A stretch of DNA of 64,000 nucleotides from Candidatus Bathyarchaeia archaeon (GCA_050015395.1 JBEKBM010000002.1:76719-140718); one strand, 5' to 3'. Counted from the first letter of the stretch, positions 20,034-35,871 are shown. The notes: generated by a model from the sequence alone, not told the origin. A program made the numbers and translations.

Positions 20034-20848
20034 CTATTTGAAGAGTCTTCTGTTGGTGGTCGTGGTCGGATATTCCTCAAAACAAGTTTTTGATAATACC
20101 AAGAAAAATGTTTAAAATCACTTTGGATTTGTTTTATTATGGCATGTTGAATTATAGCTGTGTTAGGAGCTTTATTGAAATAAGCTAATTTCTTTTCTTT
20201 GTTGTTCTCTTCTTTGTTGTAATTGTTGAAATAATCAATCGCATTATCAATTGAGATAGCATTGGCAACATTTGCATAAGTTGTCCAATAAGATATTCTT
20301 AGAAAATCATACATTGTTGCTGTTCCAAATATGAGAACCCCAAGAAATATGAAAATATAATTGCCATAAGGAATCTTGAAAAAATTTACAATCTTGATAA
20401 AATATTCATAGCTTGAAACCAAACCAAGGATTCCTACCACAATCGCAATCAGATAGCCTACATGGTTTTGGATATATGAGTGGTAGGAGTTCAATAAGCA
20501 TCTTCTTGATTCTTCAAAATCTGTTTCATCAATTACTTCTTTAATCGGTTTTTCTCTCTTTGCCTTCCAAATCTTCTTTTCTTCTGAGTCTTTTCCCTCT
20601 TGTTCTTTTTTATCATTTGGGGAATCATTGTTCTTTATCACTCCAAATTTCACTAAAGCCACAAGTATTAGGTATGCAGCAACACCAAAAAGAAGAACAA
20701 CACCAATCGAAGCAAAAGATATGATAGCGTCTTTAGGGTCACCTTTCATGCCATAGAAAAATACTTCATATGCTCCTTGAAATATTACGGTGAGAAGGAC
20801 AACAATTAGGTAAACATTTCTATATTCTTTTAGAGTTATTTTTGCCAT
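20030..20848 (-). CDS. Hypothetical membrane protein (4 predicted TM segments)
   Basis: 272-aa ORF with hydrophobic segments; preceded by the conserved leader. Confidence 0.7.
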   Translation of the reverse strand: MAKITLKEYRNVYLIVVLLTVIFQGAYEVFFYGMKGDPKDAIISFASIGVVLLFGVAAYLILVALVKFGVIKNNDSPNDKKEQEGKDSEEKKIWKAKREKPIKEVIDETDFEESRRCLLNSYHSYIQNHVGYLIAIVVGILGLVSSYEYFIKIVNFFKIPYGNYIFIFLGVLIFGTATMYDFLRISYWTTYANVANAISIDNAIDYFNNYNKEENNKEKKLAYFNKAPNTAIIQHAIIKQIQSDFKHFSWYYQKLVLRNIRPRPPTEDSSNS

Positions 20849-20887
20849 GTTTAGGTTATTTCTACGCTGTGCATTTTAAGGTTTGTC
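20846..20887 (-). promoter_or_regulatory. Conserved cassette leader (BRE/TATA plus conserved spacer to ATG)
   Basis: Reverse complement GACAAACCTTAAAATGCACAGCGTAGAAATAACCTAAAC-ATG. Confidence 0.75.
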
Positions 20888-21343
20888 AAATTTTTCAGAA
20901 ACAGCTTTTACTTTACATGGATTATGAGTATGATAAATAGTGAAAACGCAGTTTAATCGGTCTTTTTCATCACTATTATATTCAATAAGAAATTGTGACC
21001 CAATGTCGGCGTTGTCATGAGCATCAATCCATTTGCTTTCACCTATCACATTCCAGAACATCTCTTGCTTCCCATGATATTCTTTTTCACCAACTTTAAA
21101 CGATAGCCCTATGTCATTTATTCTGGTGCCTCTATCACCAACATTATTTATGTGAAATTTAGCAAAAAAGAAAATCGTCTTAATCTGAGATGTTGAGACC
21201 GTAAATCTATGGTGACAGTCTGTTACACTTACTTTTAGGTTTGGTTTTTCTTTTCTGTATGTATAAACAGAAATGATAATAGCCGAGATTCCTGTAAATG
21301 CCCCGATTAAGCCTATCCAATTGGCACTAAGGAATTCACTCAT
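20876..21343 (-). CDS. Hypothetical protein with N-terminal TM anchor and beta-rich domain
   Basis: 155-aa ORF; TM segment followed by EKPNLKVS...INNVGDR. Confidence 0.7.
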   Translation of the reverse strand: MSEFLSANWIGLIGAFTGISAIIISVYTYRKEKPNLKVSVTDCHHRFTVSTSQIKTIFFFAKFHINNVGDRGTRINDIGLSFKVGEKEYHGKQEMFWNVIGESKWIDAHDNADIGSQFLIEYNSDEKDRLNCVFTIYHTHNPCKVKAVSEKFDKP

Positions 21344-21355
21344 TTAGATACGTTC

Positions 21356-21409
21356 CATGTTTAGGCTATTTCTACGCTATTCAGATTTAAGACTTATCTT
21401 TATGAAAAA
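21356..21409 (-). promoter_or_regulatory. Conserved cassette leader
   Basis: Reverse complement TTTTTCATAAAGATAAGTCTTAAATCTGAATAGCGTAGAAATAGCCTAAAC-ATG; 3 mismatches and 1 indel versus 33901-33953. Confidence 0.8.
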
Positions 21410-21421
21410 AGAGAAAAGAAA

Positions 21422-22159
21422 TTAGCTATTAATGTTTGATCTCTCGACTTTTCTCGACAAACCATACTTTTTGGTTATGGATTGAGTAGATGCTATCAAT
21501 GATAAACTACTTGAGGGAGAAACAAATACTCTTTCCACAAGAAGTTCAATATCCACAGAAACATATATTCCCTCATCTAAAGGTGTTTTGAAAACTTTAC
21601 CATTTTCTACCCAGTTGGTAACAATTGCTCTAAGTTCGTTTTCGTTTTCAAACTTCTTATCTTTGCGAACAAGTCTACGAAAAAAATTATCCATAGAATT
21701 AACGTCATTATTCATGTCTCTGTACACCACTTTTCCAATAAAAATATCTCGAGAATCTTTAATGCTATCTCGTAATTTCAGATATGTTGATTGGATAGCA
21801 ATATCTTTTTTGAATACATCCCACATAACTCTAGAATCCTGATCACACATATACCAACAATTTACAAACGTATGCTGGAGTAGATCTTTATCAGTCACAG
21901 AATCTAATTTATTGATATGTTCTAAAAATTGCTGGTTTAAGTGAATGCTTTCTCCCCACTCTTTTCTGTACTTATCAGTCAGTATAATCTCAGGGTTTGT
22001 TTTTTGCCCTTCTAACTTATCACCTAATCGATCAGATCGAGCAAAATATAAAGCATGGCGATTCAATAAGTCGGCATATTTTTTATCATCAATTAATCGC
22101 CATATTTTTTGATCAATTTTATTTGGTTTCTCAAAAATATTGAATTCTTTATATGGCAA
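21422..22159 (-). CDS. DUF2971-like protein
   Basis: LYFARSDRLGDKLEG, FVNCW...MW, GKVVY and RKDKKFENENELR pattern. Confidence 0.7.
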   Translation of the reverse strand: MPYKEFNIFEKPNKIDQKIWRLIDDKKYADLLNRHALYFARSDRLGDKLEGQKTNPEIILTDKYRKEWGESIHLNQQFLEHINKLDSVTDKDLLQHTFVNCWYMCDQDSRVMWDVFKKDIAIQSTYLKLRDSIKDSRDIFIGKVVYRDMNNDVNSMDNFFRRLVRKDKKFENENELRAIVTNWVENGKVFKTPLDEGIYVSVDIELLVERVFVSPSSSLSLIASTQSITKKYGLSRKVERSNINS

Positions 22160-22350
22160 TTATCTCCCCAATAAAAAATGAAGCATGCAAATTTAAAACT
22201 TATCATCAATGAAAACTTAGCTAATAACTAAAAAAATAATGATAAAGAGGAAGGGAATGTGAAACATATTTTCTAGTCATAATTAATACCAATGCCATTT
22301 TGGAAGGGAAAAATAAAGAATTAACTAAAGTTCAAGGAAAAAGAGACTTG

Positions 22351-22644
22351 TTAATCTTCTTCTTCAAGTTTTCTCTCTTTAATTTTGAGTGTGTTCTCTT
22401 CTGGGCTTATTACTCTGAAAAGCTCTGAGAGCTCGTGTTTGTGCAGGAACTTTTTCAAAGTCACGCGTACGTATTTTTTGCTTAGCCCTTCGCCTTCCCC
22501 TTTCACCGTTAAGATTTTTGCGTCTGTCGCTACTTCTCCGCCTGTTTTCTCCTTAAGGAAATCCGCTAGCTTCTCGATTAATTTAGCTTCGTCACCTTTA
22601 AGATCTGAAGTATCAACTTTCATTTCAACCATTTTCATGTTCAC
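22351..22644 (-). CDS. rpl22e: Ribosomal protein eL22 (L22e)-like
   Basis: LADFLKEK and SKKYVRVTLKKFLHKHELSELFRVIS resemble the eukaryotic eL22 SKRYLKYLTKKYLKK..LRDWLRVV motif; acidic tail. Confidence 0.7.
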   Translation of the reverse strand: MNMKMVEMKVDTSDLKGDEAKLIEKLADFLKEKTGGEVATDAKILTVKGEGEGLSKKYVRVTLKKFLHKHELSELFRVISPEENTLKIKERKLEEED

Positions 22645-22897
22645 CTCGATTCATGTCACGCAATTTCTTATGTTTTAGCTTAGTTTTTCACAGCTACATT
22701 ATTGATTAAGTTTTCCGCTTAAACGTGTCAGTTCGCCCGTCGAGTCATTATCACTGCGTAAGCTCTGTGACTCTATTGCTCATCATCCAAAACATTAATC
22801 GACAACAAAACTTAAGACTCTTACGCTAAAGCGCATTTATCCAAAGAAACTGTTTTTATTATTCAAGCCAATACTTAGTTGTGGAGTTGTCTAAGGT

Positions 22898-23419
22898 ATG
22901 GATCTTTTGGAAATTATCAAGAATAGAAGAAGCATACGAGTATTCAAAAAACAAGACGTGCCCCAAGACATTATTGAAAAGCTTCTTGAAGCCGCACGGT
23001 GGGCGCCTTCTGCTGGAAACGTTCAACCGTGGGCTTTTGTAGTTGCAATCTCGCAGAAAATGAAGCAGAACCTTTCCATGGCGGCTTTTGGGCAAAAAGA
23101 CCTTGAAGAAGCATCAGTCGTTTTTGTGGTTTGCGCTGATGAAAAGCTCGCTGAACAAAGCTATGGTGTACGTGGTAAATCACTGTATTGCCTTCAGGAC
23201 ACTGCGGCTGCAATTCAAAATATCTTGTTAACCGCTCACTCGCTTGGTTTAGGTTCATGCTGGATTGGAGCATTCAAAGAGGATGAAATAAGGCAAGTCA
23301 TTAAGGCCCCTAAAGAAATGCGGCCAGTAGCTTTGATTCCAGTAGGATATCCAAACGAGGCACCAGCAGCCAGAAGTCGAAGACCAGTAGGCGAAATAAT
23401 GCATAAAGAAACCTTTTGA
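22898..23419 (+). CDS. Nitroreductase family protein
   Basis: RRSIR, APSAGNVQPW and LGLGSCWIG motifs. Confidence 0.92.
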   Translation: MDLLEIIKNRRSIRVFKKQDVPQDIIEKLLEAARWAPSAGNVQPWAFVVAISQKMKQNLSMAAFGQKDLEEASVVFVVCADEKLAEQSYGVRGKSLYCLQDTAAAIQNILLTAHSLGLGSCWIGAFKEDEIRQVIKAPKEMRPVALIPVGYPNEAPAARSRRPVGEIMHKETF

Positions 23420-24125
23420 CGTTTACCAAAGTATTTTTTAGGCTCAAAGCGGTTTCTTTCGTAAAGAAATGCGCTCTACACTTAGTCGCCCTAAACGGGA
23501 TTAAACCTGCGTTCTACGGCGTTAATCCCATTGCTACAGTGACGTATAACCATGAACTTGAGTGACTAGTAACAATGAACATGCGTGACGTAAAAGAACA
23601 GCTAAAAACAAGCCCTATTCAACAAAATAACCATGAAACAGACGCTGAACAGATCAAAAAATAATGTCGCAAGCCTACCCTACCTTAATTTGCTAAACGA
23701 TGAGTTAATAGTTTTAGGTTCTTTAGATTAGACTTAGAAAATCAGCCTTAAGAAATAGTCTATGCTCACCAATCATCCAGGAATTCAAACTGCCAAGTTA
23801 CAGGCATCATTTCTATGCTTTCTCTTTAAGATTAAAGAAGCCTGCTTCAACCTTGGGGTTAGCCCTCAACTTCTTGTAAACATTTTCATTGACCAATGGT
23901 ATTGTACAAACCCGATTTATCCGCGAACCAAATTTTGGCTTCTCCTCAGGCTTGAATAATAAAAGTTGCTTTAACAAACACAATAACGTTTAAAAGAGAC
24001 TTTATCATGTCTAATCGGTTTTATTAGAGGCAAGAGACACATGTGCAAACAGGTGGGTACCAGTTCAGCGAACATGCGCTCAACTTGCCCTGTTAAAAAT
24101 CATAATAACGAAAGGAGGAAAAGAA

Positions 24126-24251
24126 ATGTTATCAAGAGATTGTGACGGATGCTCCCAAATGAAATCGTGCAGTAGACGTTACTTCATCGTCGAAAAAGGC
24201 AATTGTGTCTTCTGCCCCGACGGAACAGCCCATTTAGTAGATGGACTATAA
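24126..24251 (+). CDS. 41-aa Cys-rich microprotein (absent from ORF track)
   Basis: MLSRDCDGCSQMKSCSRRYFIVEKGNCVFCPDGTAHLVDGL*; AGGAGG ribosome-binding site upstream. Confidence 0.6.
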   Translation: MLSRDCDGCSQMKSCSRRYFIVEKGNCVFCPDGTAHLVDGL

Positions 24252-24508
24252 AATCAAGCGAAAAAATCATTTTAAAGTTTTTTCATTTGCTCCATTTTTT
24301 ATTTTCTTACTGATTTTTCACGGTAAATAACCAAAAAATGAATTACAAAATGAATTCAACAATAAAAAAGATTAATCATTTCATAAAATTTTAATTCGCA
24401 TAATATTATAATTTTTTGTTTGAGAAAGTGCGTTAACGCTGTTCTTGAGAGACACATGTTAGCGACGAAAGAATTAGGTAGCTCGGTGGTCATTTAACGC
24501 GTAGGAGC

Positions 24509-24745
24509 TTAACAGAGGGTGCAAATCATCAAATAATCCTTGCCGTGATCTATTCTTAATTTATGAGTTTTAACGTAATCTTCCAGTTGCTTGAGCAATG
24601 ATTCATTGGCTAAGGTTGCATCCGTTAGAACTACATAGCCTTCAGTTTCAGTATCATATATCCCCCACTCAGTAAACCCTTTGAATACTTTAGGGTGACA
24701 GGCGGGAAATTTCTTTGAAAATTCTATTGCTTCAGCAAAATCCAT
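24509..24745 (-). CDS. Hypothetical protein
   Basis: 78-aa ORF with globular composition. Confidence 0.55.
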   Translation of the reverse strand: MDFAEAIEFSKKFPACHPKVFKGFTEWGIYDTETEGYVVLTDATLANESLLKQLEDYVKTHKLRIDHGKDYLMICTLC

Positions 24746-24996
24746 GCAAACAAACCCGATTCACATAACAATTTGCTGCATGAAATTATTAAAAACTTGT
24801 GCGTAAAACAGGCTACAACTTTGTTTAAAATTGTCAGATCGCACCGTTGTGAATGGCAAAACTTCAGCGGATCAGGGCATCCCCCGCATATATCACGCCA
24901 TACATAACCCGTATTATCAGCTCCAGAAGCAATCCAGCTCGAAACAGAAACGTTTAGATCTCTAAGGAATTTGAACCCAACGGTTTCAAGCCGCAT
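24724..24996 (-). CDS. Cys-rich hypothetical protein
   Basis: 90-aa ORF overlapping the start of the downstream ORF; CGGC...C...C. Confidence 0.4.
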   Translation of the reverse strand: MRLETVGFKFLRDLNVSVSSWIASGADNTGYVWRDICGGCPDPLKFCHSQRCDLTILNKVVACFTHKFLIISCSKLLCESGLFAWILLKQ

Positions 24997-25075
24997 TTAT
25001 TGCAATTGGAATTTGACCTTGAGCGCTTTTGAACGGAATCGTAATCAACCATAGCTCACTTCTGTAAGTGAGTTA

Positions 25076-25330
25076 TCATGTTCCCTGTTTGCTTTTGCGT
25101 CTTCTATCAATCAAACGGAAGGCTGCGTTAGCGCCGACAAAAATTACCAATAAAACCAAGAGAAATCCAAGGAAACTGAAGATTCTATCCAGCAAGAGAA
25201 ACAAGTTCAACAATAGCACAACAGTGGCGATAATGAAGATTGCAACCTTCTCTTTAACGATAATCCTAGGAGACATAGATTGTTGGTCACGATTAAACGC
25301 ATCACGTGCTCTTACTAATCTCTTTCCCAT
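25076..25330 (-). CDS. Small two-TM membrane protein
   Basis: Two hydrophobic helices and a basic C-terminus. Confidence 0.5.
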   Translation of the reverse strand: MGKRLVRARDAFNRDQQSMSPRIIVKEKVAIFIIATVVLLLNLFLLLDRIFSFLGFLLVLLVIFVGANAAFRLIDRRRKSKQGT

Positions 25331-25698
25331 CCTTTTTGAAATTCTTCCTCTCCCCTATTCCAAAACAAGCCTGAAGCGCCTGATTAAGGCAAAATTAAGC
25401 TTACGCCTCTAAGTTGGAAGAAGTCGAATGAATTATTCTCGCTAATCTTTGAATCGAGCATAGGCAAGGCGTCCTGTCAGCGCTTTCACTTGGTTTGGTT
25501 CTTCGTTTGGCCGCTTCAATATAGACCTTCTAAAGCTTGGCAGCATGACTTCTTTATTAGGCTCTAGGCATTCTCAGATTGAAAATGTTTAACATTAACA
25601 GTATCTGAGTCGATACCAGAACTATGTCGAGGCCGCTCATTCCTTTTTCAGAAATTCTAAAAACGAGTTTTGTCAAAGTTTTGAAAAAAGAAAAGAGG

Positions 25699-27204
25699 TT
25701 ATGTAGTTGTGTGTTCTGCGGCATAAAGGATTTCGGGTTTTTCTATTTCTAATCCTAACCCTTCTGCGACGCGGCGTCCATATTCTGCATCAGCTTTGGC
25801 GAAGAGTTTTGTTTGTCGAATTTGGATTTCTTTGTTAGCGTTTTGGAGGTGGGAAACAATGTTGCTGATGAGGTGGTTTCGATCCTGCTCTGTCAAAGCC
25901 TTTCGGTACAGTTCTCCGGGTTGAATGAAGTCATCGTTTGGATAGGTATATCGGTGTCTCCCTGCGACCCCAGCGACTTCAAACGTTGGTTCAGCAGCTT
26001 GCATGTCTGGTTCGGGACCATTAAAACTGTTAGGGTAATAGTTGGCTGCGCCCTTACCGTTTGAGTCAAACCGCATAAAGCCGTCCCGCTGGTAATTCTT
26101 CATTTCTACGCCTTTTGGCCTGTTAACTGGAAGCAGATGGTAGTTGGGTCCGAGGCGGTAGCGGTGAGCGTCGTAATATGCGAATAAGCGTCCCTGCAGC
26201 ATTTTGTCTGGAGAAGCAGCGATACCTGGTACAAAGTTTGCTGGGGAAAACGCGGCTTGTTCTACTTCCGCGAAATAGTTCTCAGGGTTGCGGTTCAGTA
26301 CCATTCGACCAACTTCCATTGGTGGATAGTCACTGTGGGGCCACACTTTCGTGACGTCGAAAATGTCGAAACGATATGTTTCTGCATCTTCCGGAGGCAT
26401 TACCTGCACCTGAAGCGTCCAAGACGGGTACTCGCCTTTTTGGATTGCGTTGTGAAGATCGCGAGTCGCGTGGTCGGGGTCAACTCCTTTCATGTGCTCA
26501 GCCTCTTCTCGAGTTAAGTTCTGGATGCCTTGGTCTGTTTTGAAGTGGTATTTAACCCAGAAATAATCGCCTGCTTCGTTGTACCATTTGAATGTGTGGC
26601 TGCCGTAGCCGTTCATGTTGCGGAAAGACTTTGGTGTTCCCCTGTCAGAAAAAAGGATAGTTACCTGATGCAGCGATTCAGGTGTCAAAGAGAGGAAATC
26701 CCAAAACATGTTGGCGTCTTTGAGGTTAGTTTCTGGATTGCGTTTCTGCGTGTGAATGAAGTCTGGAAATTTTAGGGGATCACGGATGAAGAAGACAGGC
26801 GTGTTGTTACCTACGAGATCGTAATTGCCTTCTTTGGTATAAAACTTGATTGCGAACCCGCGAGGATCACGTTCAGCATCTGCTGACCCCTTCTCGCCTC
26901 CCACCGTGGAGAATCTGGCAAAAACCTCGGTGCGCATACCTACTTCAGAAAGGAAATTTGCCTTCGTATACCTTGTTACATCATTTGTAACTTCAAAGTA
27001 TCCGCCTGCGCCAGCACCTTTGGCGTGAACAATACGTTCCGGTATCCGCTCTCGGTTAAAATGCGCCAACTTTTCGATTAGATGAACATCCTGCAGCAAA
27101 ACTGGACCACGTGCACCGACTGTAACAGAATTCTGGTCGTCGTCTACTTTTCTTCCAAAATCCGTTGTGAAATTGTTCTTTTTTTCGGTCATAAAAAGCC
27201 TCAC
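25699..27204 (-). CDS. katA: Monofunctional heme catalase
   Basis: [13 protein letters not shown] active-site motif, VGNNTPVFF, and RLFAYYDAH heme-ligand motif. Confidence 0.97.
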
Positions 27205-27390
27205 TACATTGAATGGACGCGAATTTATTTAAGGATTAGCTTATCACCCTGCTGGTTAGGAAACCAGTGTCTTTGACCAGAATTCTTTTTCGATTAAGGG
27301 TGCAAGACAAAAAAGGGGTATGAGTAATAAAAATTTGAACGAGAACTGAAAGATGAAGCTAAATTTGTTTAGAGCGTATTATAATATTAA

Positions 27391-27431
27391 TGGCGGGCCC
27401 GCTGGGATTTGAACCCACGATCTCCGGCTAT
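27391..27431 (-). repeat. Duplicated 3' end of tRNA-Arg (att site), with CCA
   Basis: 27393-27431 matches 30290-30328 at 38/39 positions. Confidence 0.9.
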
Positions 27432-28910: not shown

Positions 28911-28913
28911 AAT

Positions 28914-29405
28914 GTGGAGATGAGTCTTTTGGTAAAAGTTTTCGTCGTTTATGACACGAAGTATGGCAACACAAAACTTGCTGGGGAGAACATCGTGGAG
29001 GGAATAAGAGAAGTTGAGGGTATTGAAATCTCCATTGGCTACGTCAAGGAAATCGACATTGGAAAAGTGGCTGATTATGACGCAATAGTGTTAGGCGCGC
29101 CAAATCACATGGGTAGATCTTCCAGAACTATGAAGAAGTTTGTTGATAGGTTGGCTGAACTTGATCTGAAAGCAAAGAACGTGGCTGTTTTCGGCACTTA
29201 TTCGGGAAGGGTAAGAACTGTGGACAGAGCAGTGAAAAAACTAGAAAAAATGGCGGAAAAGAAGTTGCCTAACCTAAAACTAATTTCACCAAGTCTATCA
29301 ATAAGAGTGAATGGGATACCTGGTCCTTTGGTAGAAGGAGAACTGCCTAAATGCAAAGACTTCGGCAGAAGAATAGCAAATCATCTAAAGCAGCATATTC
29401 TTTAG
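28914..29405 (+). CDS. Flavodoxin-domain protein
   Basis: YDTKYGNT FMN-binding loop, DYDAIVLGAP. Confidence 0.85.
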   Translation: MEMSLLVKVFVVYDTKYGNTKLAGENIVEGIREVEGIEISIGYVKEIDIGKVADYDAIVLGAPNHMGRSSRTMKKFVDRLAELDLKAKNVAVFGTYSGRVRTVDRAVKKLEKMAEKKLPNLKLISPSLSIRVNGIPGPLVEGELPKCKDFGRRIANHLKQHIL

Positions 29406-29423
29406 AAAAAGGGATAGTTACAA

Positions 29424-29792
29424 TTGAGCAAGCAGCATCCGCGCATAACGAGAGAGAAAAAAACTATTGACAAGATGGTTCACATATACTGCAGGGGTCA
29501 CCATGAGACCAAAGGGAATGAGCTGTGTCCTGAATGCACCGAGTTTTTGTCGTACGCTTTCATGCGATTGGACAAGTGTCCTTTTCAAGAAGAGAAATCT
29601 ACCTGCGGCAAATGTTTGGTGCACTGTTATCAGCCTCAAATGAAGGAGAAAGTGAAGAAGGTCATGCGGTATTCGGGTCCGCGGATGCTTTTGCGCAGTC
29701 CTGGTTTGGCGCTGCATCACGCGTTTGATGGACGAAAGAAGCCTCAAACACTTGAAGAATTCAGGAAAAAAAAGGCTCAAGTTCCAACCTAA
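29424..29792 (+). CDS. YgbA-like (nitrous oxide-stimulated promoter family) protein
   Basis: REKKTI..M..IYC, LCPEC, RLDKCP, TCGKC..HCY and MRYSGPRM motifs. Confidence 0.88.
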   Translation: MSKQHPRITREKKTIDKMVHIYCRGHHETKGNELCPECTEFLSYAFMRLDKCPFQEEKSTCGKCLVHCYQPQMKEKVKKVMRYSGPRMLLRSPGLALHHAFDGRKKPQTLEEFRKKKAQVPT

Positions 29793-29933
29793 AGGCGCCC
29801 GCCTCGCCCCGATATTATCTGTTGAAGGATGTAATTAAATAAAAGTAAGCGAAAGCGAATATTTCCGCCAAAAGGCAAGTGCACCAAAAATTTTGTGTAT
29901 ATATTTAGCTCTTGGCTTTTGTCTTAGGACATT

Positions 29934-30061
29934 TGTGTGTGCTCAAGCTACCCTCCCGATCTACTAGATGCTTCTAATATGCTTCAAATATGATTCAACA
30001 TAGTTCAACATAGGCTCAATGTCCCGCACTTTCAACATGAATTAATGCTTTTTCAACATAG
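29934..30061 (+). repeat. TGTGTGTGC-CTACC motif followed by ~10-bp TTCAACATAG repeats
   Basis: TTCAACATAG at 29994, 30004 and 30052; TTCAACATGA at 30031; degenerate units at 29968-29993. Confidence 0.65.
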
Positions 30062-30290
30062 AAAAGCTGTTTTTTAATGTAGAAAAAAAGCACTAAAGAA
30101 GAAAAAACAAGAGCTAAATAAACGCCTCAAAAAATAACGCCAGTCCCTTCCACAAAAACCTTAAGTCCCTAGGAATTAACAGAATCTTTTCAAAAATTAA
30201 CTCTAATTCTGTTAAATAAACCTGATCAGATTCGAGTCTGAAGTTGTTTGGGGCTCTATGGGTTCCAGTCCTTCGGTCCAAAAGGGAGAG

Positions 30291-30387
30291 CGGGCCCGGT
30301 GGGATTTGAACCCACGATCTCCGGCTATCTTCCGCTTTAAGAAGCGTCCGAAGGCCGACACCTTAATCCGTGCTAGGCTACGAGCCC
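30291..30387 (-). tRNA. tRNA-Arg(TCG) with ~21-nt canonical intron
   Basis: Reverse complement GGGCTCG...TCGGC CTTCGG [intron] A GCCGG...GGTTCAAATCCCAC CGGGCCC G cloverleaf. Confidence 0.9.
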
Positions 30388-30478
30388 ACCTTTGACAACT
30401 CAATAATGCAGTAGCATTAAAGATTTACGACAATTCTTATAAACCAACATAATATTAAACTTGTGTCACCCTAAGCGC

Positions 30479-30556
30479 GGGCCGGTAGCTCAGCACGGCT
30501 GGAGCGTTCGACTGATAATCGAAAGGTCGCCGGTTCAAATCCGGCTCGGCCCACCA
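30479..30556 (+). tRNA. tRNA-Ile(GAT)
   Basis: GGGCCGG acceptor, TTCGA CTGATAA TCGAA anticodon arm, GGTTCAAAT T-loop, ACCA end. Confidence 0.95.
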
Positions 30557-30600
30557 ATTAATCCGCACAAAAGGGTTATGGAATCTTAGCCTGAAAAAAT

Positions 30601-31611
30601 ATGACTCAGCTCTCTCCCGAAACAATTTGGAACTTAAACGAAAAAGAACTCTTAAGCTTACTGGAATCAGGCTTCTTTACGCCCAAGCCCAAAGAAATCC
30701 GCTTTTACGCTCCAAGCTTCACCTACTACAAAACAAAATATTACTGCTCATCCCCAAATAGTTTCCCAACCATTTCCGTCACTGGTACATCTTGCGCGTT
30801 GAATTGCAAACATTGTGGGGGCAAAGTGCTTGAAACCATGCGTCCAGTGCTCTCGCCTAAGGAACTGTTTGAGTTATGCACCAAGCTGAAACAGGACGGC
30901 GCTCAAGGTTGCCTCGTTAGCGGCGGATGTTTACCCGATGGTTCTGTGCCTCTTAACCAGTTCGTGCCTGCGCTTAGGAGAATTAAGCGGGAGCTCGGCT
31001 TAACAGTTTTTGTTCATACAGGCATAATAAACCTTGAAACTGCCGTCTCGCTCATGGACGCTGAAGTTGATGCAGCATTAATCGATGTTATTGGTTCAAA
31101 AGAAACGATAAAGAAAACCTACAACCTGAACGTAACCCCTGAAGATTATGCGGACTCATTGAAGGCTTTGGACAAATCAGGATTAAATTTTGTGCCTCAC
31201 GTTATCGTTGGGTTAAATGAGGGCAAATTAGACGGTGAACTAGAAGCGCTCCAAATGATAAGCAGAGTTAAGCCTTCTGCCTTAGTAATAATAGCGTTCA
31301 TGCCAATACATGGAACAGCCATGGAGAAAGCGCCGCCGCCCAAACCAGTTGACATAGCCAAAGTCGCATCGGTGGCACGGTTGATGTTTCCAGAAACTCC
31401 GTTGATTTTGGGTTGCATGAGACCCAAAGGTGCAATACGCAGCGAAACAGACGTTTTAGCGTTGAAGGCTGGGGTGGATGCAGTTGCGTTTCCCAGTGAA
31501 GATGCCGTAAAATACGCGGAAAGCAAAGGGTGCACGATTTCTTTTTCTTCTTATTGTTGCGCTCAAATGTACATGGATGCTGCTGGAAAATTAAAAAGTA
31601 ATCGACTTTAG
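30601..31611 (+). CDS. Radical SAM protein (biotin synthase-related)
   Basis: CALNCKHC motif, LVSGG, LGCMRP. Confidence 0.88.
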   Translation: MTQLSPETIWNLNEKELLSLLESGFFTPKPKEIRFYAPSFTYYKTKYYCSSPNSFPTISVTGTSCALNCKHCGGKVLETMRPVLSPKELFELCTKLKQDGAQGCLVSGGCLPDGSVPLNQFVPALRRIKRELGLTVFVHTGIINLETAVSLMDAEVDAALIDVIGSKETIKKTYNLNVTPEDYADSLKALDKSGLNFVPHVIVGLNEGKLDGELEALQMISRVKPSALVIIAFMPIHGTAMEKAPPPKPVDIAKVASVARLMFPETPLILGCMRPKGAIRSETDVLALKAGVDAVAFPSEDAVKYAESKGCTISFSSYCCAQMYMDAAGKLKSNRL

Positions 31612-32225
31612 CTTGATTTTAACATTTTGTAGCCCAGTATAATGGTCCATGCTGAAACAATAAGTCCCGACACGAATTCTGGAATAGCCACATTTGGAAC
31701 ATAGTTAAATGCAAACAATAGTATCCAAGGCAGTGCTGCGGTAATACCAGTTGAAACCGTGAAAATTGCCATTCGCCCCTGATGAGCAAGCAAAAAAGCG
31801 CAGGTTATAATGAACATTGATATGGGCATTAGCGTGAAGAATGCTACTGAAACTGCATAGTGCGTCCCAGAATAATGCTCGTTAAAAACGCCAATAGCGA
31901 TAAGCGCTATCGTTGCTGCTGCAAAGACTGCGGCTCCAATTTTGCCAACCCAAGTTTTTCCAAGGCAGGCAAACAAGCCAAATACTGCAAAGTTTAAGGC
32001 TAAAAGCCCGCTGACGCATAGCCCGAAATTGAAGAGTAATCCAGTTATGCCTGCTATTACGCCTAAATCGCTTAAGGCATTGCTTGTCCAGCTGAAGGAG
32101 GGGTAGGATGCGATGGCTATCAAGATGCAGGGAAACGCAAGTATGGGTGCAAATATTCCTGTGGCGGCTCCGAATCTTTGTTTTCCAGTGTTTCTATATT
32201 CAGGCAACCCTTGATTCCTCAGCAA
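31608..32225 (-). CDS. DUF998-like membrane protein
   Basis: FSWTSNALSDLG, IGVFNE and AIPE motifs; multiple TM segments. Confidence 0.8.
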   Translation of the reverse strand: MLRNQGLPEYRNTGKQRFGAATGIFAPILAFPCILIAIASYPSFSWTSNALSDLGVIAGITGLLFNFGLCVSGLLALNFAVFGLFACLGKTWVGKIGAAVFAAATIALIAIGVFNEHYSGTHYAVSVAFFTLMPISMFIITCAFLLAHQGRMAIFTVSTGITAALPWILLFAFNYVPNVAIPEFVSGLIVSAWTIILGYKMLKSS

Positions 32226-32327
32226 CTTAAATGGCGATAACTTGCTTTAAGAATTTGCGTCCTCAGGAACAAGCCGCCTCAACGTCTGCGGTAAACGAGC
32301 AAAGAAGCAAAGTCTGCTGGCAAAAAT

Positions 32328-32364
32328 TCTTAAATCTGAATAGCGTAGAAATAGATTAGCCATG
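32328..32364 (+). promoter_or_regulatory. Orphan copy of the conserved cassette leader
   Basis: TCTTAAATCTGAATAGCGTAGAAATAGATTAGCC-ATG with no convincing gene downstream. Confidence 0.7.
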
Positions 32365-32415
32365 TTGATTTTTTGCCCATTTCGCGTGGATGCTTACCTG
32401 CTCGTCAGTGTGATT

Positions 32416-32640
32416 CTATCTCTTCAAGTGTGTGGCCTTCCATTTTTCTTGAAGCTTTTCGGCAAGATTACCATTTTCAAGAATGAAGGCTCCACGGTAG
32501 CCGCAGTTTTTGCACTGCCATAACGACCAGAGTTGAGGCATGCCCTGAGCCCAGAACACATCGAGTGAACCGCATTTCGGACAGAACTTAACTGGAAATT
32601 TGCTTTTCTTATTTTGTCTCGTTGATGTATCAGTCAACAA
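32416..32640 (-). CDS. Small zinc-ribbon protein
   Basis: FCPKCGS...WQCKNCGYRG. Confidence 0.75.
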   Translation of the reverse strand: MLTDTSTRQNKKSKFPVKFCPKCGSLDVFWAQGMPQLWSLWQCKNCGYRGAFILENGNLAEKLQEKWKATHLKR

Positions 32641-32980
32641 GCATCACTACATCCATTAATGTTTTAATATCTTTTTATTTGTTAGCTTGAGCGTATTAAT
32701 TAATTTTTTATTCTCTCTCTTACCTAAGGCTCAAGGTTAAATCAGTGGTTCCTCAGAAATCTTATGTAGTAAAATCAGTATAGATTCATTGTTAAATCAT
32801 GTATATTCTTCAAAAAATCCTTCGAGAGTCTGCCTTTCATCTTCCACTTTATCGATTCTTTCAGATCAGTATAGTGAAAGTAGAACATCCAAAGTAGTTA
32901 GTTCTCGTTAGCGTGCGCCACCGAGTAAAGGCTGATAGTTTTTTAATAGCTAAAACGTATAGCTTTCATGAAGTGAAAGA

Positions 32981-33145
32981 TTGCGAAAAAAGTCCGAAGC
33001 ATTTGCGATAATCTGTATAATTTTCTTCTTAGTTTTTGGTATATCCATTCTATGGCTCAATAATAATTTATTGACATGGTCATCAGGAGTTCTAGCATCT
33101 GCTACGGGGCTTCTTTCCACTTACTTTAACAAAAAAGGTTCTTAA
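32981..33145 (+). CDS. 54-aa two-TM protein (absent from ORF track)
   Basis: TTG start; MRKKSEAFAIICIIFFLVFGISILWL...TYFNKKGS*. Confidence 0.45.
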   Translation: MRKKSEAFAIICIIFFLVFGISILWLNNNLLTWSSGVLASATGLLSTYFNKKGS

Positions 33146-33203
33146 GAAGATTTATAATTAAACTCTGGGATAAAGAAGGATGGAAAACTCGGCAAAATCT
33201 TGA

Positions 33204-33440
33204 TTGGAGGAGAATAAAATGGTAGAAGTTGACAACAGTAAATCTTTCATGAAAAAAAATGAAAAAACTATTTCATGGATAGCTATTATTATTGGAGTGG
33301 TTTCATTGTTAGTATATGGTCTAATTGGAATAATAGCTATTATCTTAGGCTATTGGATTTTCAAACAAAAAACTTACAAAACAAACGGTGAAATTGCAAT
33401 AGTTCTTGGAATTGCAGGAATTGTATTATCTCTGATATGA
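33204..33440 (+). CDS. Small membrane protein
   Basis: Hydrophobic 78-aa ORF. Confidence 0.6.
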   Translation: MEENKMVEVDNSKSFMKKNEKTISWIAIIIGVVSLLVYGLIGIIAIILGYWIFKQKTYKTNGEIAIVLGIAGIVLSLI

Positions 33441-33644
33441 GGAATGTTAAATCATAACGTGCCAAACCCAGTTAAAAAATTATTGAACTTTTCCAAACGT
33501 GAGGTAGTTGGAACCTAAACGGATTAAGCGTTTCTTTTTATGCGAATATTTTAGAACCCGTTCTTTCAGAATGGTCGCTTAATAATTAAAATACCGAAAA
33601 ACCTAAAACAAATCCAAGTTAATGCTATGTGAGGAAAAGGGAAA

Positions 33645-33836
33645 ATGGGATACCCTGTATGGACACACACTTCAGACAGATACTATGCACAAATGATGCA
33701 TGAAGGCGAAGAAAACAAGCTGTCGTCAGAGAATAGCGAGCTAAGAAAAGAAAATGAAGCACTCAAAGCAAGAAACAAAGAGCTCGAAGATGAAAACAAA
33801 GACCTGAAAAAATACATAGACTCTTTGAAATGCTGA
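33645..33836 (+). CDS. Small coiled-coil protein
   Basis: Heptad ENxxL repeats; purine-rich RBS. Confidence 0.55.
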   Translation: MGYPVWTHTSDRYYAQMMHEGEENKLSSENSELRKENEALKARNKELEDENKDLKKYIDSLKC

Positions 33837-33900
33837 TGAGAAATACTTGAAAAGACAGCAACGAGCTAGAGAACTCGGAATTTGAATATTAAGATACTAA

Positions 33901-33953
33901 TTTTTCATAAAGATAAATCTTAAATCTGCATAACGTAGAAATAGCCTAACATG
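33901..33953 (+). promoter_or_regulatory. Conserved cassette leader
   Basis: TTTTTCATAAAGATAAATCTTAAATCTGCATAACGTAGAAATAGCCTAAC-ATG. Confidence 0.8.
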
Positions 33954-34238
33954 ACAAAAAGATTTACAGCTATCATCCTCATTGCCAATGTCATAATGGG
34001 TTTGCTTCTTTATCTTTCCAGTCAATTGGTGCTCTCAGAACTCAATGGTGCGACGCTAAGCGGATATAGTATTACCTCAATTGGCATAACGCCAACACAG
34101 GTTGGTCAAGTTATTGTTCCGATTGCGATGTCAATGGCTAACTTCCCGTTCTATGTCTTTGTCCTCTTTTTGATAGTAAATGCTTGCTTCATAATAAAAC
34201 TGCTAATAAGCAAAGAAACAAAACAGAACCCTTCTTAA
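33951..34238 (+). CDS. Hypothetical two-TM membrane protein
   Basis: 95-aa ORF starting exactly at the end of the conserved leader. Confidence 0.7.
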   Translation: MTKRFTAIILIANVIMGLLLYLSSQLVLSELNGATLSGYSITSIGITPTQVGQVIVPIAMSMANFPFYVFVLFLIVNACFIIKLLISKETKQNPS

Positions 34239-34299
34239 ACCCACATAATGACATTTTGAGCTATTACAGCTAAGAGGACATCATTCATTCTTTTATTCC

Positions 34300-34352
34300 C
34301 TAAGTTTCTTTCTATTCTGCAAACTACATTAAACGGTTACTACAACCATTCA
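34300..34352 (+). repeat. 53-bp downstream element, copy 2
   Basis: 47/53 identical to the reverse complement of 19981-20033. Confidence 0.8.
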
Positions 34353-34424
34353 GGGGTTAGAAACTTCGATATTTACAAAGTACATTAAGGCGCTATAATG
34401 GTCTCGGTAAGCTAGAAACTTGGA

Positions 34425-34468
34425 GAGATAAGTCTTAAATCTACATAGCATAGATACAGTTTATTATG
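34425..34468 (+). promoter_or_regulatory. Conserved cassette leader (divergent 3' half)
   Basis: GATAAGTCTTAAATCTACATAGCATAGATACAGTTTATT-ATG. Confidence 0.7.
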
Positions 34469-35158
34469 GGCGAAAAAGAAAAAGGATTCAATCCCACTTT
34501 TGAGAATGGTGGTTATTGGGAGTACTACAAAGATTTAGAACGACAATTTGAAGGCTTCTTAGAGTACGTTCCTTACTTAGAAGGAAATGAAAAAACGTAT
34601 TCTTTTAGATTGGCTAATATTTTGCTCTCTATTGGAAGTCACGTGGATTCTGCTTTTAAGGAAATGTCGGGATATCCTGATTTTTTGGAAAGAGAAAGTT
34701 GTAAAGAGATTTTGAGAAGAGCAAATGACAAAGAAGGAATCATAATAAGTGGTGTTCGTGCCTTCGATGAAATATACGGGTTATCCTCAAAAGAAGTAAC
34801 TTTCAAATGTCTCCCCGAAAGGATGCAGATTACTCCTTTCAAAAGGGTTAAACCTGAATGGTGGGATTGCTATAATGACGTAAAGCATGACATCAGCAAT
34901 AATCTTTCAAAGGCAACTCTGAATGCTGTAAGAGATGCCCTCGCTGGAGCTTTCTTACTGAATGTTGTTCATATACCCTCTGCTTTGAGATTATATAATT
35001 ATGGTGTCCTTCAAACAAGGATGACTTACCAAGGGAGTGTAGGAATATACGGTGATATAGGAACATCAATTTCAGTAATAAGAAACTCCATAATGAAAAA
35101 GGAAAAAATCACTGGGGATGTTGAGACTTCTATTTTCAAATATGATTATTACCAGTGA
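34466..35158 (+). CDS. Hypothetical helical protein, possibly HEPN-like
   Basis: YWEYYKDLE, TYS..LA.IL and PEWW..YNDVKH pattern. Confidence 0.6.
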   Translation: MGEKEKGFNPTFENGGYWEYYKDLERQFEGFLEYVPYLEGNEKTYSFRLANILLSIGSHVDSAFKEMSGYPDFLERESCKEILRRANDKEGIIISGVRAFDEIYGLSSKEVTFKCLPERMQITPFKRVKPEWWDCYNDVKHDISNNLSKATLNAVRDALAGAFLLNVVHIPSALRLYNYGVLQTRMTYQGSVGIYGDIGTSISVIRNSIMKKEKITGDVETSIFKYDYYQ

Positions 35159-35286
35159 AAAATCTCAGTTTAAATGTTCTTGTTCTATCAAGTACCTTGA
35201 AAAGGTTACCATACATTAGAATCTATAGGTTTTCACAAAGACAAGTCTTAAATCTTCATAGCATGAAAGTGGAATTGAGGGAGAAA

Positions 35287-35871
35287 ATGTCTTGGAAAGG
35301 CTGTATTGATAAAGTTAACGAAGCAATGTGCGAATTGATGAGATACGATGTGGAATTCATTGATGATAAAGGCTTTTCGGAATTTCTTGACCACTTAAAA
35401 GGACTTAAGGGGACTCGGTTTAGCGACCGCTACAATTCAGACTTTAGAAACTTGGATATAACTGGCTATTTTTCTGTGGGAATAAGCGACCTTCTATGCG
35501 ACCGTTCAGAAAAATGCCGAGCTAATATCAGGCTAATTTCGCCTACGTTTGGGGATGCAACCAAGAAGCCAGATTATAATAACTTGACAGCGCTCAGAAA
35601 GATGCAAGATGCTGGTATTGAAATCAAAGTAAACGATATGCTTCATGCAAGACTTTTTGTTGGTTACAACCAAGAAGTATCCCTAAGTAATGATATTTTG
35701 TTATTAGGCTCATTTGATTTCAATAGAGAAGGTTTAAGCGGAGAGAAGAGAAACGCAGGAATCATAACTCGGAATCCAGACTTAGTAAAGTCTGCAAGAG
35801 AGTTCTTCGAAGGAATGTGGACAGACAGCCATTACACAAAATCGCTAAATGAAAAGTACCCACTCAAATAA
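35287..35871 (+). CDS. Phospholipase D-like domain protein (variant HxR...GSxD)
   Basis: LHARLFV...LLGSFDF...NAGI..RNP...F..MW; likely start MSWKG after a leader copy at 35239 (track start 35155). Confidence 0.7.
   Translation: MSWKGCIDKVNEAMCELMRYDVEFIDDKGFSEFLDHLKGLKGTRFSDRYNSDFRNLDITGYFSVGISDLLCDRSEKCRANIRLISPTFGDATKKPDYNNLTALRKMQDAGIEIKVNDMLHARLFVGYNQEVSLSNDILLLGSFDFNREGLSGEKRNAGIITRNPDLVKSAREFFEGMWTDSHYTKSLNEKYPLK

Follow-up and report, generated by a model that had tools for sequence, protein, structure and literature searches.

A conserved block with BRE and TATA box, probably a shared promoter, precedes unrelated accessory genes in one sub-clade of a Bathyarchaeia genus

Motif copies in the window and in the genome

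The window, by which we mean the whole stretch of 64,000 nucleotides of Candidatus Bathyarchaeia archaeon DNA that was analysed, contains two arrays of small genes in which copies of one short block recur at or near the start codons. The features of the two arrays are as follows, with coordinates counted from the first letter of the window.

19969..20044, minus strand: second copy of a 3' block, immediately past the stop of gene 20030-20848
20030..20848, minus strand: 272-aa membrane protein, leaderless-type start 32 nt past the TATA box, no Pfam family above cut-off
20848..20893, minus strand: motif copy 1, variant TATA box CCTTAAAAT, E 7e-4, adjoining the ATG of gene 20030-20848
20876..21343, minus strand: 155-aa protein with an N-terminal membrane segment, no Pfam family
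21359..21404, minus strand: motif copy 2, the best in the genome, E 4.4e-11
21422..22159, minus strand: 245-aa ORF, match to PADLOC candidate defence family PDC-S31 (E 5.5e-11, nearly full length)
22165..22210, minus strand: partial copy, BRE/TATA and a few bases retained, spacer diverged, E 27
32316..32361, plus strand: motif copy 4, E 3.6e-8
32362..32523, plus strand: 53-aa ORF behind motif copy 4, doubtful because a 74-aa ORF overlaps it on the other strand
33906..33951, plus strand: motif copy 5, with 92.6% identity over 54 nt to copy 2, which lies on the opposite strand
33951..34238, plus strand: tm95, a 95-aa two-segment membrane protein with motif-bearing homologues in six other genomes, in differing contexts
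34289..34420, plus strand: conserved intergenic spacer, a T-rich 3' block (GTTTCTTTCTATTCTGCAAA...) followed by repeated AGAAACTT words up to the next motif
34421..34466, plus strand: motif copy 6, E 1.4e-7
34466..35158, plus strand: p230, a 230-aa protein without Pfam family, with a motif-bearing paralogue on contig C8
35234..35279, plus strand: motif copy 7, E 1.2e-6, spacer partly diverged
35287..35871, plus strand: 194-aa PLD-like (PLDc_2) protein behind motif copy 7

All seven sites that an earlier note on this DNA had listed are present, either exactly or within a few bases of where it had placed them. Six of the seven are significant against a profile made from the copies (E 4e-11 to 7e-4), and to this extent its claim of seven related copies stands; the seventh, 22165-22210(-), is partial and without significance (E 27), having only the upstream half TTTTCATTGATGATAAGTTTTAAATTTGCAT in common with the others. 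The three substitutions and one indel that had been counted between two copies were found again, as the pair 21356-21409 / 33901-33953 has 92.6% identity over 54 positions with four differences including one gap, and most other pairs of copies have only 33-42 nt in common. The window ORFs are indeed unrelated to one another, and the sole clustering pair among the motif-led ORFs of the genome is that of window gene 34466-35158 and the gene on contig C8.

Some details of the arrays are worth recording. The TAA stop of the upstream ORF 20876-21343 falls within the TATA box of motif copy 1, and the ATG of motif copy 2 itself (21356-21358) starts a mini-ORF of four codons whose TAA adjoins the real ATG at 21343. 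At copy 7, a Shine-Dalgarno-like GGGAG stands ahead of the ATG at 35287. The T-rich 3' block of the spacer at 34289..34420 lies directly past the stop codon of the upstream gene, and this spacer is held in common with the left array (19969-20044, minus strand) and with loci in other genomes.

A profile scan of the 2.59 Mb genome returned 22 copies on 9 contigs and then fell abruptly to noise, so the copies form a discrete class, with the consensus GATAAGTCTTAAATCTGCATAGCGTAGAAATAG, often extended as CCTAAAC-ATG. The motif is thus not limited to the two arrays to which the earlier note had assigned it, and it also occurs across the clade. As a 34-mer had no matches in 100 shuffles, chance is excluded, and a control with the reversed pattern gave 0-1 matches per genome vs up to 37 real ones. 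The copies are clustered, 17 of the 22 having another copy at most 2.5 kb away (random mean 0.86). The block carries 38.7 bits of information vs the 17.8 bits needed for specifying 22 sites, a genome-only figure from a profile seeded from the window copies; the clade-wide information content is inflated because most loci were fetched by a pattern covering -2..+20.

Anatomy of the block, its cargo and its distribution

The block, ~33 to 42 bases long and nearly invariant, has the build of a complete archaeal promoter: a BRE-like GATAAG, a TATA box TCTTAAAT and an 18-nt spacer CTGCATAGCGTAGAAATAG that reaches up to the expected transcription start. Among 227 copies anchored on the first T of TTAAAT, conservation is limited to -8..+24 and is near zero in the flanks. 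The 18-nt spacer contains G and C and is itself nearly invariant; read by eye, its consensus is without the clear dyad or direct-repeat symmetry that is usual in dimeric regulators. A at -5 and -4 is found in the block as in the other promoters of the genome, but tRNA and other genes have only aA..TTTAAAT in common and their spacer is not conserved, which bears out the suggestion that conservation from TATA to ATG is unusual here. Copies with a decayed spacer still hold BRE and TATA, namely 22165-22210 and 35234-35279 in the window and one in genome G010.

In 52 of 172 units the start codon lies at the leaderless position, +30 to +32; in another 47 it lies at +37 to +43, after GG-rich words that would give a short Shine-Dalgarno leader. 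In about one third of the units the block runs on as ...CCTAAAC into the ATG, of the leaderless type, and across 53 leaderless units from 39 families the consensus reaches the ATG, where similarity ends. This spacing agrees with an archaeal core promoter, in which a TATA-like box stands ~26-29 nt before the start together with an A-rich BRE. Since the conserved block ends about the expected transcription start, we conclude from its sequence that the repeat comprises BRE/TATA and the whole stretch from TATA to the predicted start, and is therefore a predicted promoter and not a transcribed leader. "Leader", as the block had been called, is a misnomer, and the proposal of a BRE/TATA promoter for leaderless mRNA fits the 52 units with an ATG 30-32 nt past the first T of TTAAAT. 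Identity of the motif is 0.79 between copies before unrelated genes vs 0.82 before homologous genes, while that of the upstream flank is 0.28 vs 0.31, and the motif-led genes themselves evolve fast, with dS up to 2.9.

By sequence, the 172 downstream ORFs group into 125 clusters, of which 97 are singletons, although some assignments and start codons will be wrong as the ORFs were called by a crude rule. No Pfam family was found for 86 of 102 representatives from relatives, and 4 of the 22 motif-led ORFs of this genome match one at the curated cut-off. A membrane or signal segment is predicted in 55-60% of motif-led ORFs vs 24-28% of the background, and median ORF GC is 36.0% vs 43.3%. Defence-related families in PADLOC are matched by 4 of 81 cargo proteins, immunity families by none, and PLD-like and weak HEPN matches also occur. 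Most islets are small and co-oriented, with 1-4 genes placed directly between core genes, and many copies are solitary or placed between core genes. None of the 22 copies in this genome has a ribosomal or other core gene behind it; one block stands before 125 ORF clusters, and the claim that the motif is limited to accessory genes is supported. One relative's unit may head the core gene NAC, 138 nt downstream.

The motif is restricted to one sub-clade of one peat-dwelling Bathyarchaeia genus. Of the other species genomes in the genus, 63 of 119 contain it; a search of 16 genomes belonging to other families in the order gave none. Its distribution tracks host phylogeny: 25 of 30 genomes whose TyrRS is at least 88% identical to that of this genome carry it, as do 3 of 23 at 87% or below. 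Among the 80 matches listed in a species-wide scan, 78 are titled Bathyarchaeia or Bathyarchaeota and the remaining two come from G009, a member of the genus. A search of the available Bathyarchaeia literature on promoters and TATA boxes, integrons and transcription start sites returned no report of such a block.

It could be argued that the block is nothing but the best core promoter that the basal machinery of the clade can use, copied with or onto accessory genes and kept for high expression. BRE and TATA agree with the consensus for promoters across the genome (A at -5 and -4, TTAAAT), and the neighbour-gene and wHTH searches identified no cognate regulator. Furthermore, the sequences shared by archaeal viruses hold the strongest known BRE/TATA, an element that also occurs before highly expressed host genes (PMC11065993). 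We nevertheless consider this rather unlikely: the spacer is nearly invariant here whereas ordinary and tRNA promoters have no conserved spacer, 0 of 22 copies precede core genes, the information is about twice that needed for the sites, and the copies with decayed spacer keep BRE/TATA as if the two halves had separate functions.

Turnover of units and the search for recombination machinery

Single units differ between species. A unit of ~785 bp, consisting of the motif and the PLD-like gene, occurs in this genome but is missing from the corresponding place in G080, and the tm95 unit stands in differing contexts in 6 of 8 loci compared. At nine loci in eight genomes, relatives of p230 have the full motif (four), a partial motif (one) or other promoters (four), the full motif being confined to the closest genomes; among 66 metagenome loci of p230, 9 have the motif, and distant relatives have upstream regions of Shine-Dalgarno type. 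The idea of a portable module gains support from these single-unit differences, from the 125 ORF clusters and from p230 having the motif only in this clade. Within the species, 4 other peat or wetland runs and 2 metagenome contigs have arrays identical to those of the window, against the expectation of arrays that vary between strains, and boundaries of the kind expected for leader-to-leader indels could not be located inside the motif. Two further arrangements were seen: one array has two units, of 240 and 242 bp, with paralogous genes, and the stop codon TAA of the upstream ORF falls within the next TATA box in two unrelated families.

Integrons, with IntI, attI and attC, form co-oriented arrays of single-gene cassettes with variable accessory cargo, and the cassettes are mostly promoterless. 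The arrays described here resemble them in being co-oriented, in having a repeat between single-gene units and in their variable accessory cargo, and the motif could accordingly be pictured as a site of site-specific or homology-driven recombination for single-gene cassettes, with the promoter expressing the captured gene. Up to 8 copies in 3.1 kb at one locus (L130), all of them co-oriented motif-plus-ORF units, the presence or absence of single units between species, the same unit in different contexts, the exact joining of the module to the ATG in 39 unrelated families and the low GC of the arrays all agree with this, and the TAA-in-TATA overlaps and the 240/242 bp paralogue units are what unequal crossing-over between motifs would give. 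However, the machinery is not seen. The six weak matches in the genome to tyrosine recombinase (PF00589) all lie more than 5 kb from every one of the 22 copies, the nearest at ~8.7 kb, and no neighbour gene recurs at more than 6 of ~130 loci. Folding of the motif does not exceed that of shuffled sequences (z 0.09 to 1.27), so the attC-type hairpin is missing, as the earlier note had already said, and the repeat stands 5' of each gene, giving each unit its own BRE/TATA block in place of one Pc for promoterless cassettes. The absence of placeable indel boundaries in the motif, the identical arrays in 4 runs and 2 metagenome contigs and the many copies that are solitary or between core genes likewise speak against it, and gain and loss of genes with their own promoter would give the same picture without dedicated machinery. 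We therefore find integron-like cassettes improbable, and the suggested role of the motif as a recombination or homology handle unsupported. The intergenic spacer gave folding z-scores of -0.25 and -0.38 in the right array and -2.2 and -1.9 in the left. A promoter-bearing repeat of MITE or Correia-like type, with terminal inverted repeats and a target-site duplication bounding a unit of fixed length, does not fit: what recurs is one asymmetric 33-nt block between random flanks, and it does not fold.

The rAID-1 arrays of Bacteroidales likewise consist of orphan genes, have a skewed G+C and contain repetitive sequence between the genes; they have a conserved XerD-family recombinase at their head and immunity genes as cargo (bioRxiv 10.1101/471110), neither of which was found here.

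Archaeal viruses offer a precedent. Their small unrelated early and anti-defence genes are preceded by a conserved regulatory sequence around a strong BRE/TATA, for which a wHTH protein has been proposed as repressor (Nat Commun 2024, PMC11065993). By analogy, the islets could be remnants of integrated viruses or plasmids with a consensus promoter and an element-encoded factor: they too hold small, unrelated, AT-rich single genes under one regulatory sequence, a region of contig C7 bordered by two copies contains a terminase-like and an integrase-like gene as well as a tRNA, and a few cargo genes are defence-related (the 4 of 81 PADLOC matches, PLD-like, weak HEPN). Yet the copies lie in scattered islets on host chromosomes of more than 60 species, most islets have 1-4 genes directly between core genes and follow host phylogeny, and the viral collection contains only 3 contigs with the pattern, one copy each. 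In contrast to the viral sequences, the conserved part here is mainly downstream of TATA up to the start site, and the search identified no cognate regulator; this genome lacks homologues of a small wHTH-like family whose members stand behind the motif in some relatives. An origin from mobile elements thus seems very unlikely to us.

Least probable of all, hardly to be expected, is that a specialised TFB or TBP paralogue reads this promoter class in the manner of a sigma-factor regulon: two genes each for TFB and TBP occur in the genome and the block covers exactly the DNA touched by TBP, TFB and polymerase, but five motif-less congeners have 2-4 TFB and 2-3 TBP, so this genome has no extra paralogue and none is specific to motif presence, and TFB and TBP contacts are not known to account for sequence-specific conservation across the whole spacer.

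A shared control signal as the favored reading

We favor, with a probability of roughly 55%, the option that the block is a core promoter, portable and specific to the clade, whose operator-like spacer serves a trans factor and which was spread by promoter reuse. As a nearly invariant promoter block stands before unrelated accessory genes, these genes probably share one control signal, which moves with units that are gained, lost and shuffled. The spacer would be the putative binding site of a trans-acting factor, most simply a repressor that blocks recruitment of polymerase between TATA and start site, and such a repressor, acting at the common spacer, would make the whole gene set one regulon. 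A dedicated regulon for accessory genes, one of the options in the earlier note, is in this way the reading that we retain, although the search for the factor among neighbours and wHTH proteins gave no candidate. The block may have come to stand before unrelated genes, including genes from outside, by copying and not by independent evolution of sites.

Archaeal promoters are commonly repressed by a factor whose site lies over the stretch from TATA to start, as do the F55 sites on SSV1 promoters, and the putative site described here has the same position. Such operators are short and often symmetric and belong to conserved orthologous genes, whereas the promoter described here is stereotyped over its full length and stands before genes that turn over.

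One may go further and see in the block an integrase-free platform for gene capture and expression, a possibility that we hold only tentatively. Incoming ORFs, or ORFs that have newly arisen, would then acquire a portable unit of promoter and start codon by copying or recombination, with the junction exactly at the ATG, and would come under common on/off control; clade-specific gene arrays would be built and reshuffled in this way.

If the reading as a portable, regulated promoter is true, one short block marks, and probably co-regulates, a fast-turnover pool of small membrane and secreted proteins, with some nuclease or defence-like genes, in abundant uncultivated peat archaea. The block would predict transcription starts and true start codons for genes without family, and it defines a candidate regulon that is testable in metatranscriptomes as well as a bait sequence for the factor. 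It also bears on the expression signals of horizontally acquired archaeal genes, the widely distributed p230 family carrying the promoter of the clade at its start codon only within this clade.

Spread by promoter reuse has a counterpart in the putative mobile promoters, which are highly similar upstream sequences before non-paralogous genes within and across related genomes, and whose mechanism of spread is not established (Mob Genet Elements 2012, PMC3575422). That survey considered positions -150 to -50 and required 50 nt or more with 80% identity, whereas the block described here measures 33-54 nt, abuts the start codon, has an archaeal BRE/TATA and forms a large family instead of pairs. 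The copies at 21356-21409 and 33901-33953, with 92.6% identity over 54 nt in front of unrelated genes, reach the length of at least 50 nt and the identity of at least 80% that were used there.

The block in the host genome

Inspection of the window confirmed that all seven sites at which the earlier note had placed a shared leader in front of unrelated accessory genes exist. The genome (2,594,141 bases in 42 contigs, the window being C2:76719-140718) was searched with a profile built from copies of this block, which gave 22 copies at E <= 0.01, followed by a sharp fall to chance-level matches, as expected of a discrete family. These 22 include six of the seven window sites; the remaining one, 22165-22210 (-), retains the upstream half alone (E 27). 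The copies are spread over nine contigs, and 17 of them have a neighbor copy within 2.5 kb, a number that averaged 0.86 and never exceeded 6 in 1000 random trials. All copies share one orientation in six out of seven clusters, the exception being contig C7, where the copies at 49505 and 50542 diverge.

Pooling the host genome with the loci of relatives gave 266 profile hits, of which 234 were unique and 227 could be anchored on TTAAA. In the anchored copies the conserved block is GATAAG-TCTTAAAT-CTGCATAGCGTAGAAATAG, which is asymmetric and extends from -8 to +24, counted from the first T of TTAAAT, with almost no information beyond these limits, upstream or downstream. The pooled information content of about 44 bits is inflated because most of the relatives' loci were fetched by a pattern spanning -2 to +20. 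The 22 host copies alone, corrected for small sample size, give 38.7 bits, and 17.8 bits are enough to specify 22 genomic sites.

The distance from the first T of the TATA box to the first plausible ORF downstream was measured in 172 units, each consisting of a block and its ORF. The ATG lies 30–32 nt on in 52 units and 37–43 nt on, behind GG-rich words, in 47. In the 30–33 nt class (53 units from 39 unrelated families) the consensus runs on as ...AAATAGCCTAAAC and ends exactly at the ATG. The TATA box of archaeal leaderless mRNAs is centered about 28 nt before the ATG. As the spacing seen here has this leaderless geometry, the block is almost wholly untranscribed promoter DNA, and the label of leader has to be given up. 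A transcribed leader or RNA element is ruled out both by the spacing and by the absence of a fold (z 0.09 to 1.27 against shuffled sequence over the two strands of the block). An Rfam search of 19–37 kb of the window returned two tRNAs and no other RNA family. RNA-guided targeting of the block was also rejected, as the genome holds no extra spacer copy outside the promoter context.

Ordinary promoters of the host look different from the block. Upstream of 49 tRNA genes there is only a loosely A-rich stretch and then TTTAAAT or CTTAAAT, and 144 protein genes with TTAAAT at -50 to -25 show the same loose pattern without a conserved spacer. None of the 22 host copies stands before a recognizable housekeeping gene; in relatives, a possible exception is one unit with a NAC gene 138 nt on. 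The observation of a shared block is real and robust, and its association with accessory genes is confirmed.

Constraint, portability and turnover

The features of the window that enter the comparison are the following:

about 19.1-22.3 kb (-), left islet of block-led genes, a low-GC patch
about 32.3-36.0 kb (+), right islet of block-led genes, a low-GC patch
33951-34238 (+), tm95, a 95-aa membrane protein
34466-35158 (+), p230, a 230-aa protein

Over 33 nt, the median identity of blocks heading unrelated genes is 0.79, compared with 0.82 for blocks heading homologous genes; identity over the 32 nt upstream stays at the random level in either comparison (0.28 and 0.31, respectively), and the synonymous divergence of homologous block-led genes goes up to saturation. 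A block that is alike regardless of the kinship of its genes, between random flanks and before saturated genes, thus points to selection on its own sequence. Conversion could instead have kept the copies alike if it were confined to the exact limits of the block, but these limits are sharp and we consider this explanation less likely. Independent origin of about 39 bits in front of more than 100 gene families is out of the question, and the block must therefore have spread by copying.

Relatives of p230 are found in just 8 of 120 genomes of the genus. Nine such loci comprise four with the full block, one with BRE/TATA alone and four with unrelated promoters, and the homologues of G123, G115, G093 and G086 have unrelated upstream sequences, the latter two genomes being without any block copy. 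Of 66 metagenome loci with p230 relatives, nine bear the block, and these encode the nearest relatives (at least 53% identity); the distant relatives have Shine-Dalgarno-type upstream regions, with the start codon at the homologous place. The block is thus present only before the closest p230 relatives, so that a family widespread beyond the clade has been fitted with the promoter of the clade exactly at the ATG. The tm95 gene occurs with the block in six other genomes. Flanking genes are common to just two of eight compared loci, which are mutually close relatives, and nucleotide similarity between tm95 loci begins at block position -8 or -9 in five and stops at the stop codon in three. Portability of the block, as the earlier note had proposed, is confirmed, and fits both the restriction of block-led p230 to the clade and the varied contexts of the tm95 unit.

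In the congener G080, a conserved stretch lies about 80 nt after the p230 gene; in the host the same stretch lies behind the PLD-like gene, and the host's own p230 paralogue on contig C8 is arranged as in G080. The block and PLD unit of about 785 bp is therefore an insertion in the host or a loss elsewhere; the ends of the unit could not be located within the block. In the 10 kb upstream of the tyrosyl-tRNA synthetase (TyrRS) gene, 12 relatives have none of the window genes and two of the 12 have a block copy, so this region is too rearranged for a test of precise indels.

Within the species the arrays are stable. Logan contigs of four other peat/wetland runs show 0 differences per array segment and break at block copies, and two metagenome contigs (285 kb and 71 kb) have four block copies at unchanged distances from the p230 gene. 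In window 18500-37500, Logan contigs also showed joints between the opposite-strand arrays at 19904/33907 (in four out of four runs, at a depth like that of the main contigs), 21361/33902, 21368/34301 and 22222/33938, and block-to-block skips at 19961-21361 and 21408-22191. The sides of these joints and skips are just 22–37 letters at 90% likeness, and such joints often stem from repeats or other organisms, so that no conclusion is based on them. The joints could reflect inversion between inverted block copies, or merely other block copies.

The best copy, 21359-21404, bears an ATG of its own and a four-codon mini-ORF at 21341-21358 (-), reading ATG GAA CGT ATC TAA ATG, the stop of which abuts the real start codon (TAAATG). 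The arrangement looks like that of a leaderless-ATG module set in front of a gene that already had a start codon. In the window ORF 20876-21343 and in the eight-copy array of L130, a relative's locus, the TAA of the next TATA box ends the preceding ORF, and two units of 240–242 bp in the L130 array encode paralogues. Unequal exchange between block copies would give such paralogous units and such endings; ordinary tandem duplication would equally give them.

Clade and cargo

Of 119 other species genomes in the genus, 63 contain a 23-nt core of the block with up to three mismatches (1 to 37 copies each), as against none of 16 genomes from the order's other families; the reversed pattern, used as control, gave 0–1 hits. 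A scan of bacteria and archaea, with one genome per species, gave at least 113 stretches with the block, and among the matches listed 78 of 80 were titled as Bathyarchaeia/Bathyarchaeota MAGs (peat, bog, fen, palsa, soil), the other two being from G009, of the same genus. This last MAG (loci L072 and L076) is titled Candidatus Acidoferrum and is 56% complete, yet is placed in the genus of the window. The block is present in 25 of 30 genomes with a TyrRS at least 88% identical to that of the host versus 3 of 23 at 87% or less, a tally that omits G070, in which the gene is split, and six genomes without an orthologue. Near relatives that are without the block are G011, G043, G053, G024 and G060. 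The spacer half alone gave two hits versus two control hits in five complete or nearly complete block-less congeners, which is noise level, and a diverged block in distant congeners was rejected on this ground. As presence follows relatedness and the block-less congeners are without the spacer half, the block is an invention of one sub-clade that has been kept since.

The 172 downstream ORFs form 125 BLASTP clusters, 97 of them singletons, with no ORF assigned for 55 of the 227 anchored copies under the ORF-calling rule used. Among the host's block-led ORFs, the p230 gene and its counterpart on C8 are the sole homologous pair. Pfam families above the curated cut-off were obtained for 4 of 22 host cargo proteins (PLDc_2, DUF6915, Metallophos and UPF0489), and among the relatives 16 of 102 cluster representatives had a family at E <= 1e-4, including NYN, GNAT, DNA methylase, EVE, ArsR-RDD and SnoaL. 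A hydrophobic membrane or signal segment is predicted in 55% of all cargo proteins versus 28% of the background, a crude gene set of the host genome, and in 60% versus 24% at 80–300 aa. The cargo ORFs have a median G+C of 36.0% versus 43.3%, and just 3.7% of background genes are so low. In multi-member cargo families dN/dS is mostly 0.2–0.6, and these are therefore real but fast-evolving genes. The cargo suggests envelope remodeling or conflict functions, with known defense families covering just 4 of 81 proteins by PADLOC, including the candidate family PDC-S31 for 21425-22159.

The two window islets sit among core genes, with an HdrA/MvhD-type gene to the left and TyrRS to the right, and between them are a ribosomal-L22e-like ORF, a nitroreductase, a catalase, two tRNAs, a radical-SAM gene and a DUF998 gene. 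The L22e-like ORF (97 aa, 22354-22644 (-), E 6e-7) is conserved beside the left array in three loci. Other host islets adjoin ribosomal protein S15, CCA-adding enzyme, XPD helicase, FEN1, Cdc48 and AspRS.

A putative regulon and its alternatives

The block thus defines a separate class of complete core promoters, confined to one clade and attached to single accessory genes, selected over its whole length and portable between unrelated genes, and the islets of block-led genes have a high turnover between species. We favor a dedicated regulon, one of the two readings offered by the earlier note. The spacer between TATA and start would be a putative operator for a trans factor, and a protein bound there would hinder polymerase recruitment, which is the usual mode of archaeal repressors; in this way, the whole block-led set would be switched together. 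The excess of information over that needed for site specification is in keeping with overlapping recognition of the block by both basal factors and a regulator, and the spacer-less BRE/TATA copies (22165-22210, partly 35234-35279, and the G010 homologue) fit two separable functions. Pfam analysis of 68 neighbors for a regulator revealed scattered ArsR, BlaI, AbiEi, NikR and TrmB-like genes without pattern, and the small wHTH-like proteins that are block-led in relatives have no homologues in the host genome. The host has two TFB and two TBP genes, compared with two to four and two to three, respectively, in five block-less congeners, and no paralogue is special to the block-bearing host.

The alternative, that the block is a recombination handle, is unproven. 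A genome search for tyrosine recombinases (PF00589) gave six weak matches, all lying more than 5 kb from the nearest copy, and about 130 loci share no recurrent neighbor gene, the biggest neighbor cluster having six members. A short inverted repeat, CTAAGTTTCT ... AGAAACTTAG, lies at the ends of the inter-unit spacers at 34300-34425 (+), 19905-20035 (-) and C8 38530-38700, within which the word AGAAACTT occurs two or three times. Compared with shuffles, the fold of the right spacer has z -0.25 and -0.38 and that of the left z -2.2 and -1.9, so that of these two just the left folds better than shuffled sequence; the order and composition of the repeats are presumably at odds with attC core sites. 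A viral origin was considered and rejected; a viral collection gave three single-copy hits.

The nearest described case is in archaeal viruses, where a consensus regulatory sequence around a strong BRE/TATA heads small unrelated early/anti-defense genes and a wHTH protein is the likely repressor (PMC11065993). Promoter reuse before non-paralogous genes was put forward as a general notion for prokaryotes in 2012 (PMC3575422), and rAID-1 of Bacteroidales is described as arrays with repetitive intergenic sequences and skewed GC plus a recombinase (bioRxiv 10.1101/471110). Unlike these cases, the block sits in chromosomes, occurs throughout a clade of cellular archaea and is conserved chiefly between TATA and start, with no recombinase or regulator in sight. 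Our literature search turned up no account of a promoter of this kind in Bathyarchaeia, nor anything closer from archaea at large.

A second repeat family, GTTTCTTTCTATTCTGCAAAGTACATTAA..., at 19969-20044 (-) and 34289-34364 (+), starts within a few bases of the stop codons of different genes and is also found in the host (C31 about 7959, C8 about 19746) and in L041, L093, L130, L137 and other loci. It gave 18 hits with up to six mismatches in 3.6 Mb searched, and in 4 of 16 distinct matches listed a block TATA follows 88–130 nt on; the family may serve as a terminator or 3′ module common to the units. A palindrome, TTAGTCAAGAAACTTTGAC, is present once or twice in long leaders (129–138 nt) before secreted proteins, possibly as a 5′ UTR RNA hairpin, in the following units:

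C21 of the host, about 29300-29356 (-)
L130 array, unit at 2459
L063, unit at 5070

On host contig C7, about 49.5-60.7 kb, a terminase-like gene (PF03237), family-less ORFs, an integrase-like match (C7:59239-59673) and a tRNA-Ser (60575) suggest an integrated virus, with two block copies at its far edge. In the window, a 39-nt sequence at 27393-27431 is 97% identical to 30290-30328, the 3′ part of an intron-bearing tRNA (30290-30387), and lies 2.9 kb off in direct orientation; the pair brackets ferredoxin-like, zinc-ribbon, flavodoxin and YgbA-like genes, with the catalase just outside, and resembles the scar that an element leaves on integrating at a tRNA. Finally, seven tandem copies of a 120-nt unit at 62213-63232 and a GGNGTN-rich run of 12/18-nt repeats at 8823-9078 probably each encode a repeat protein.
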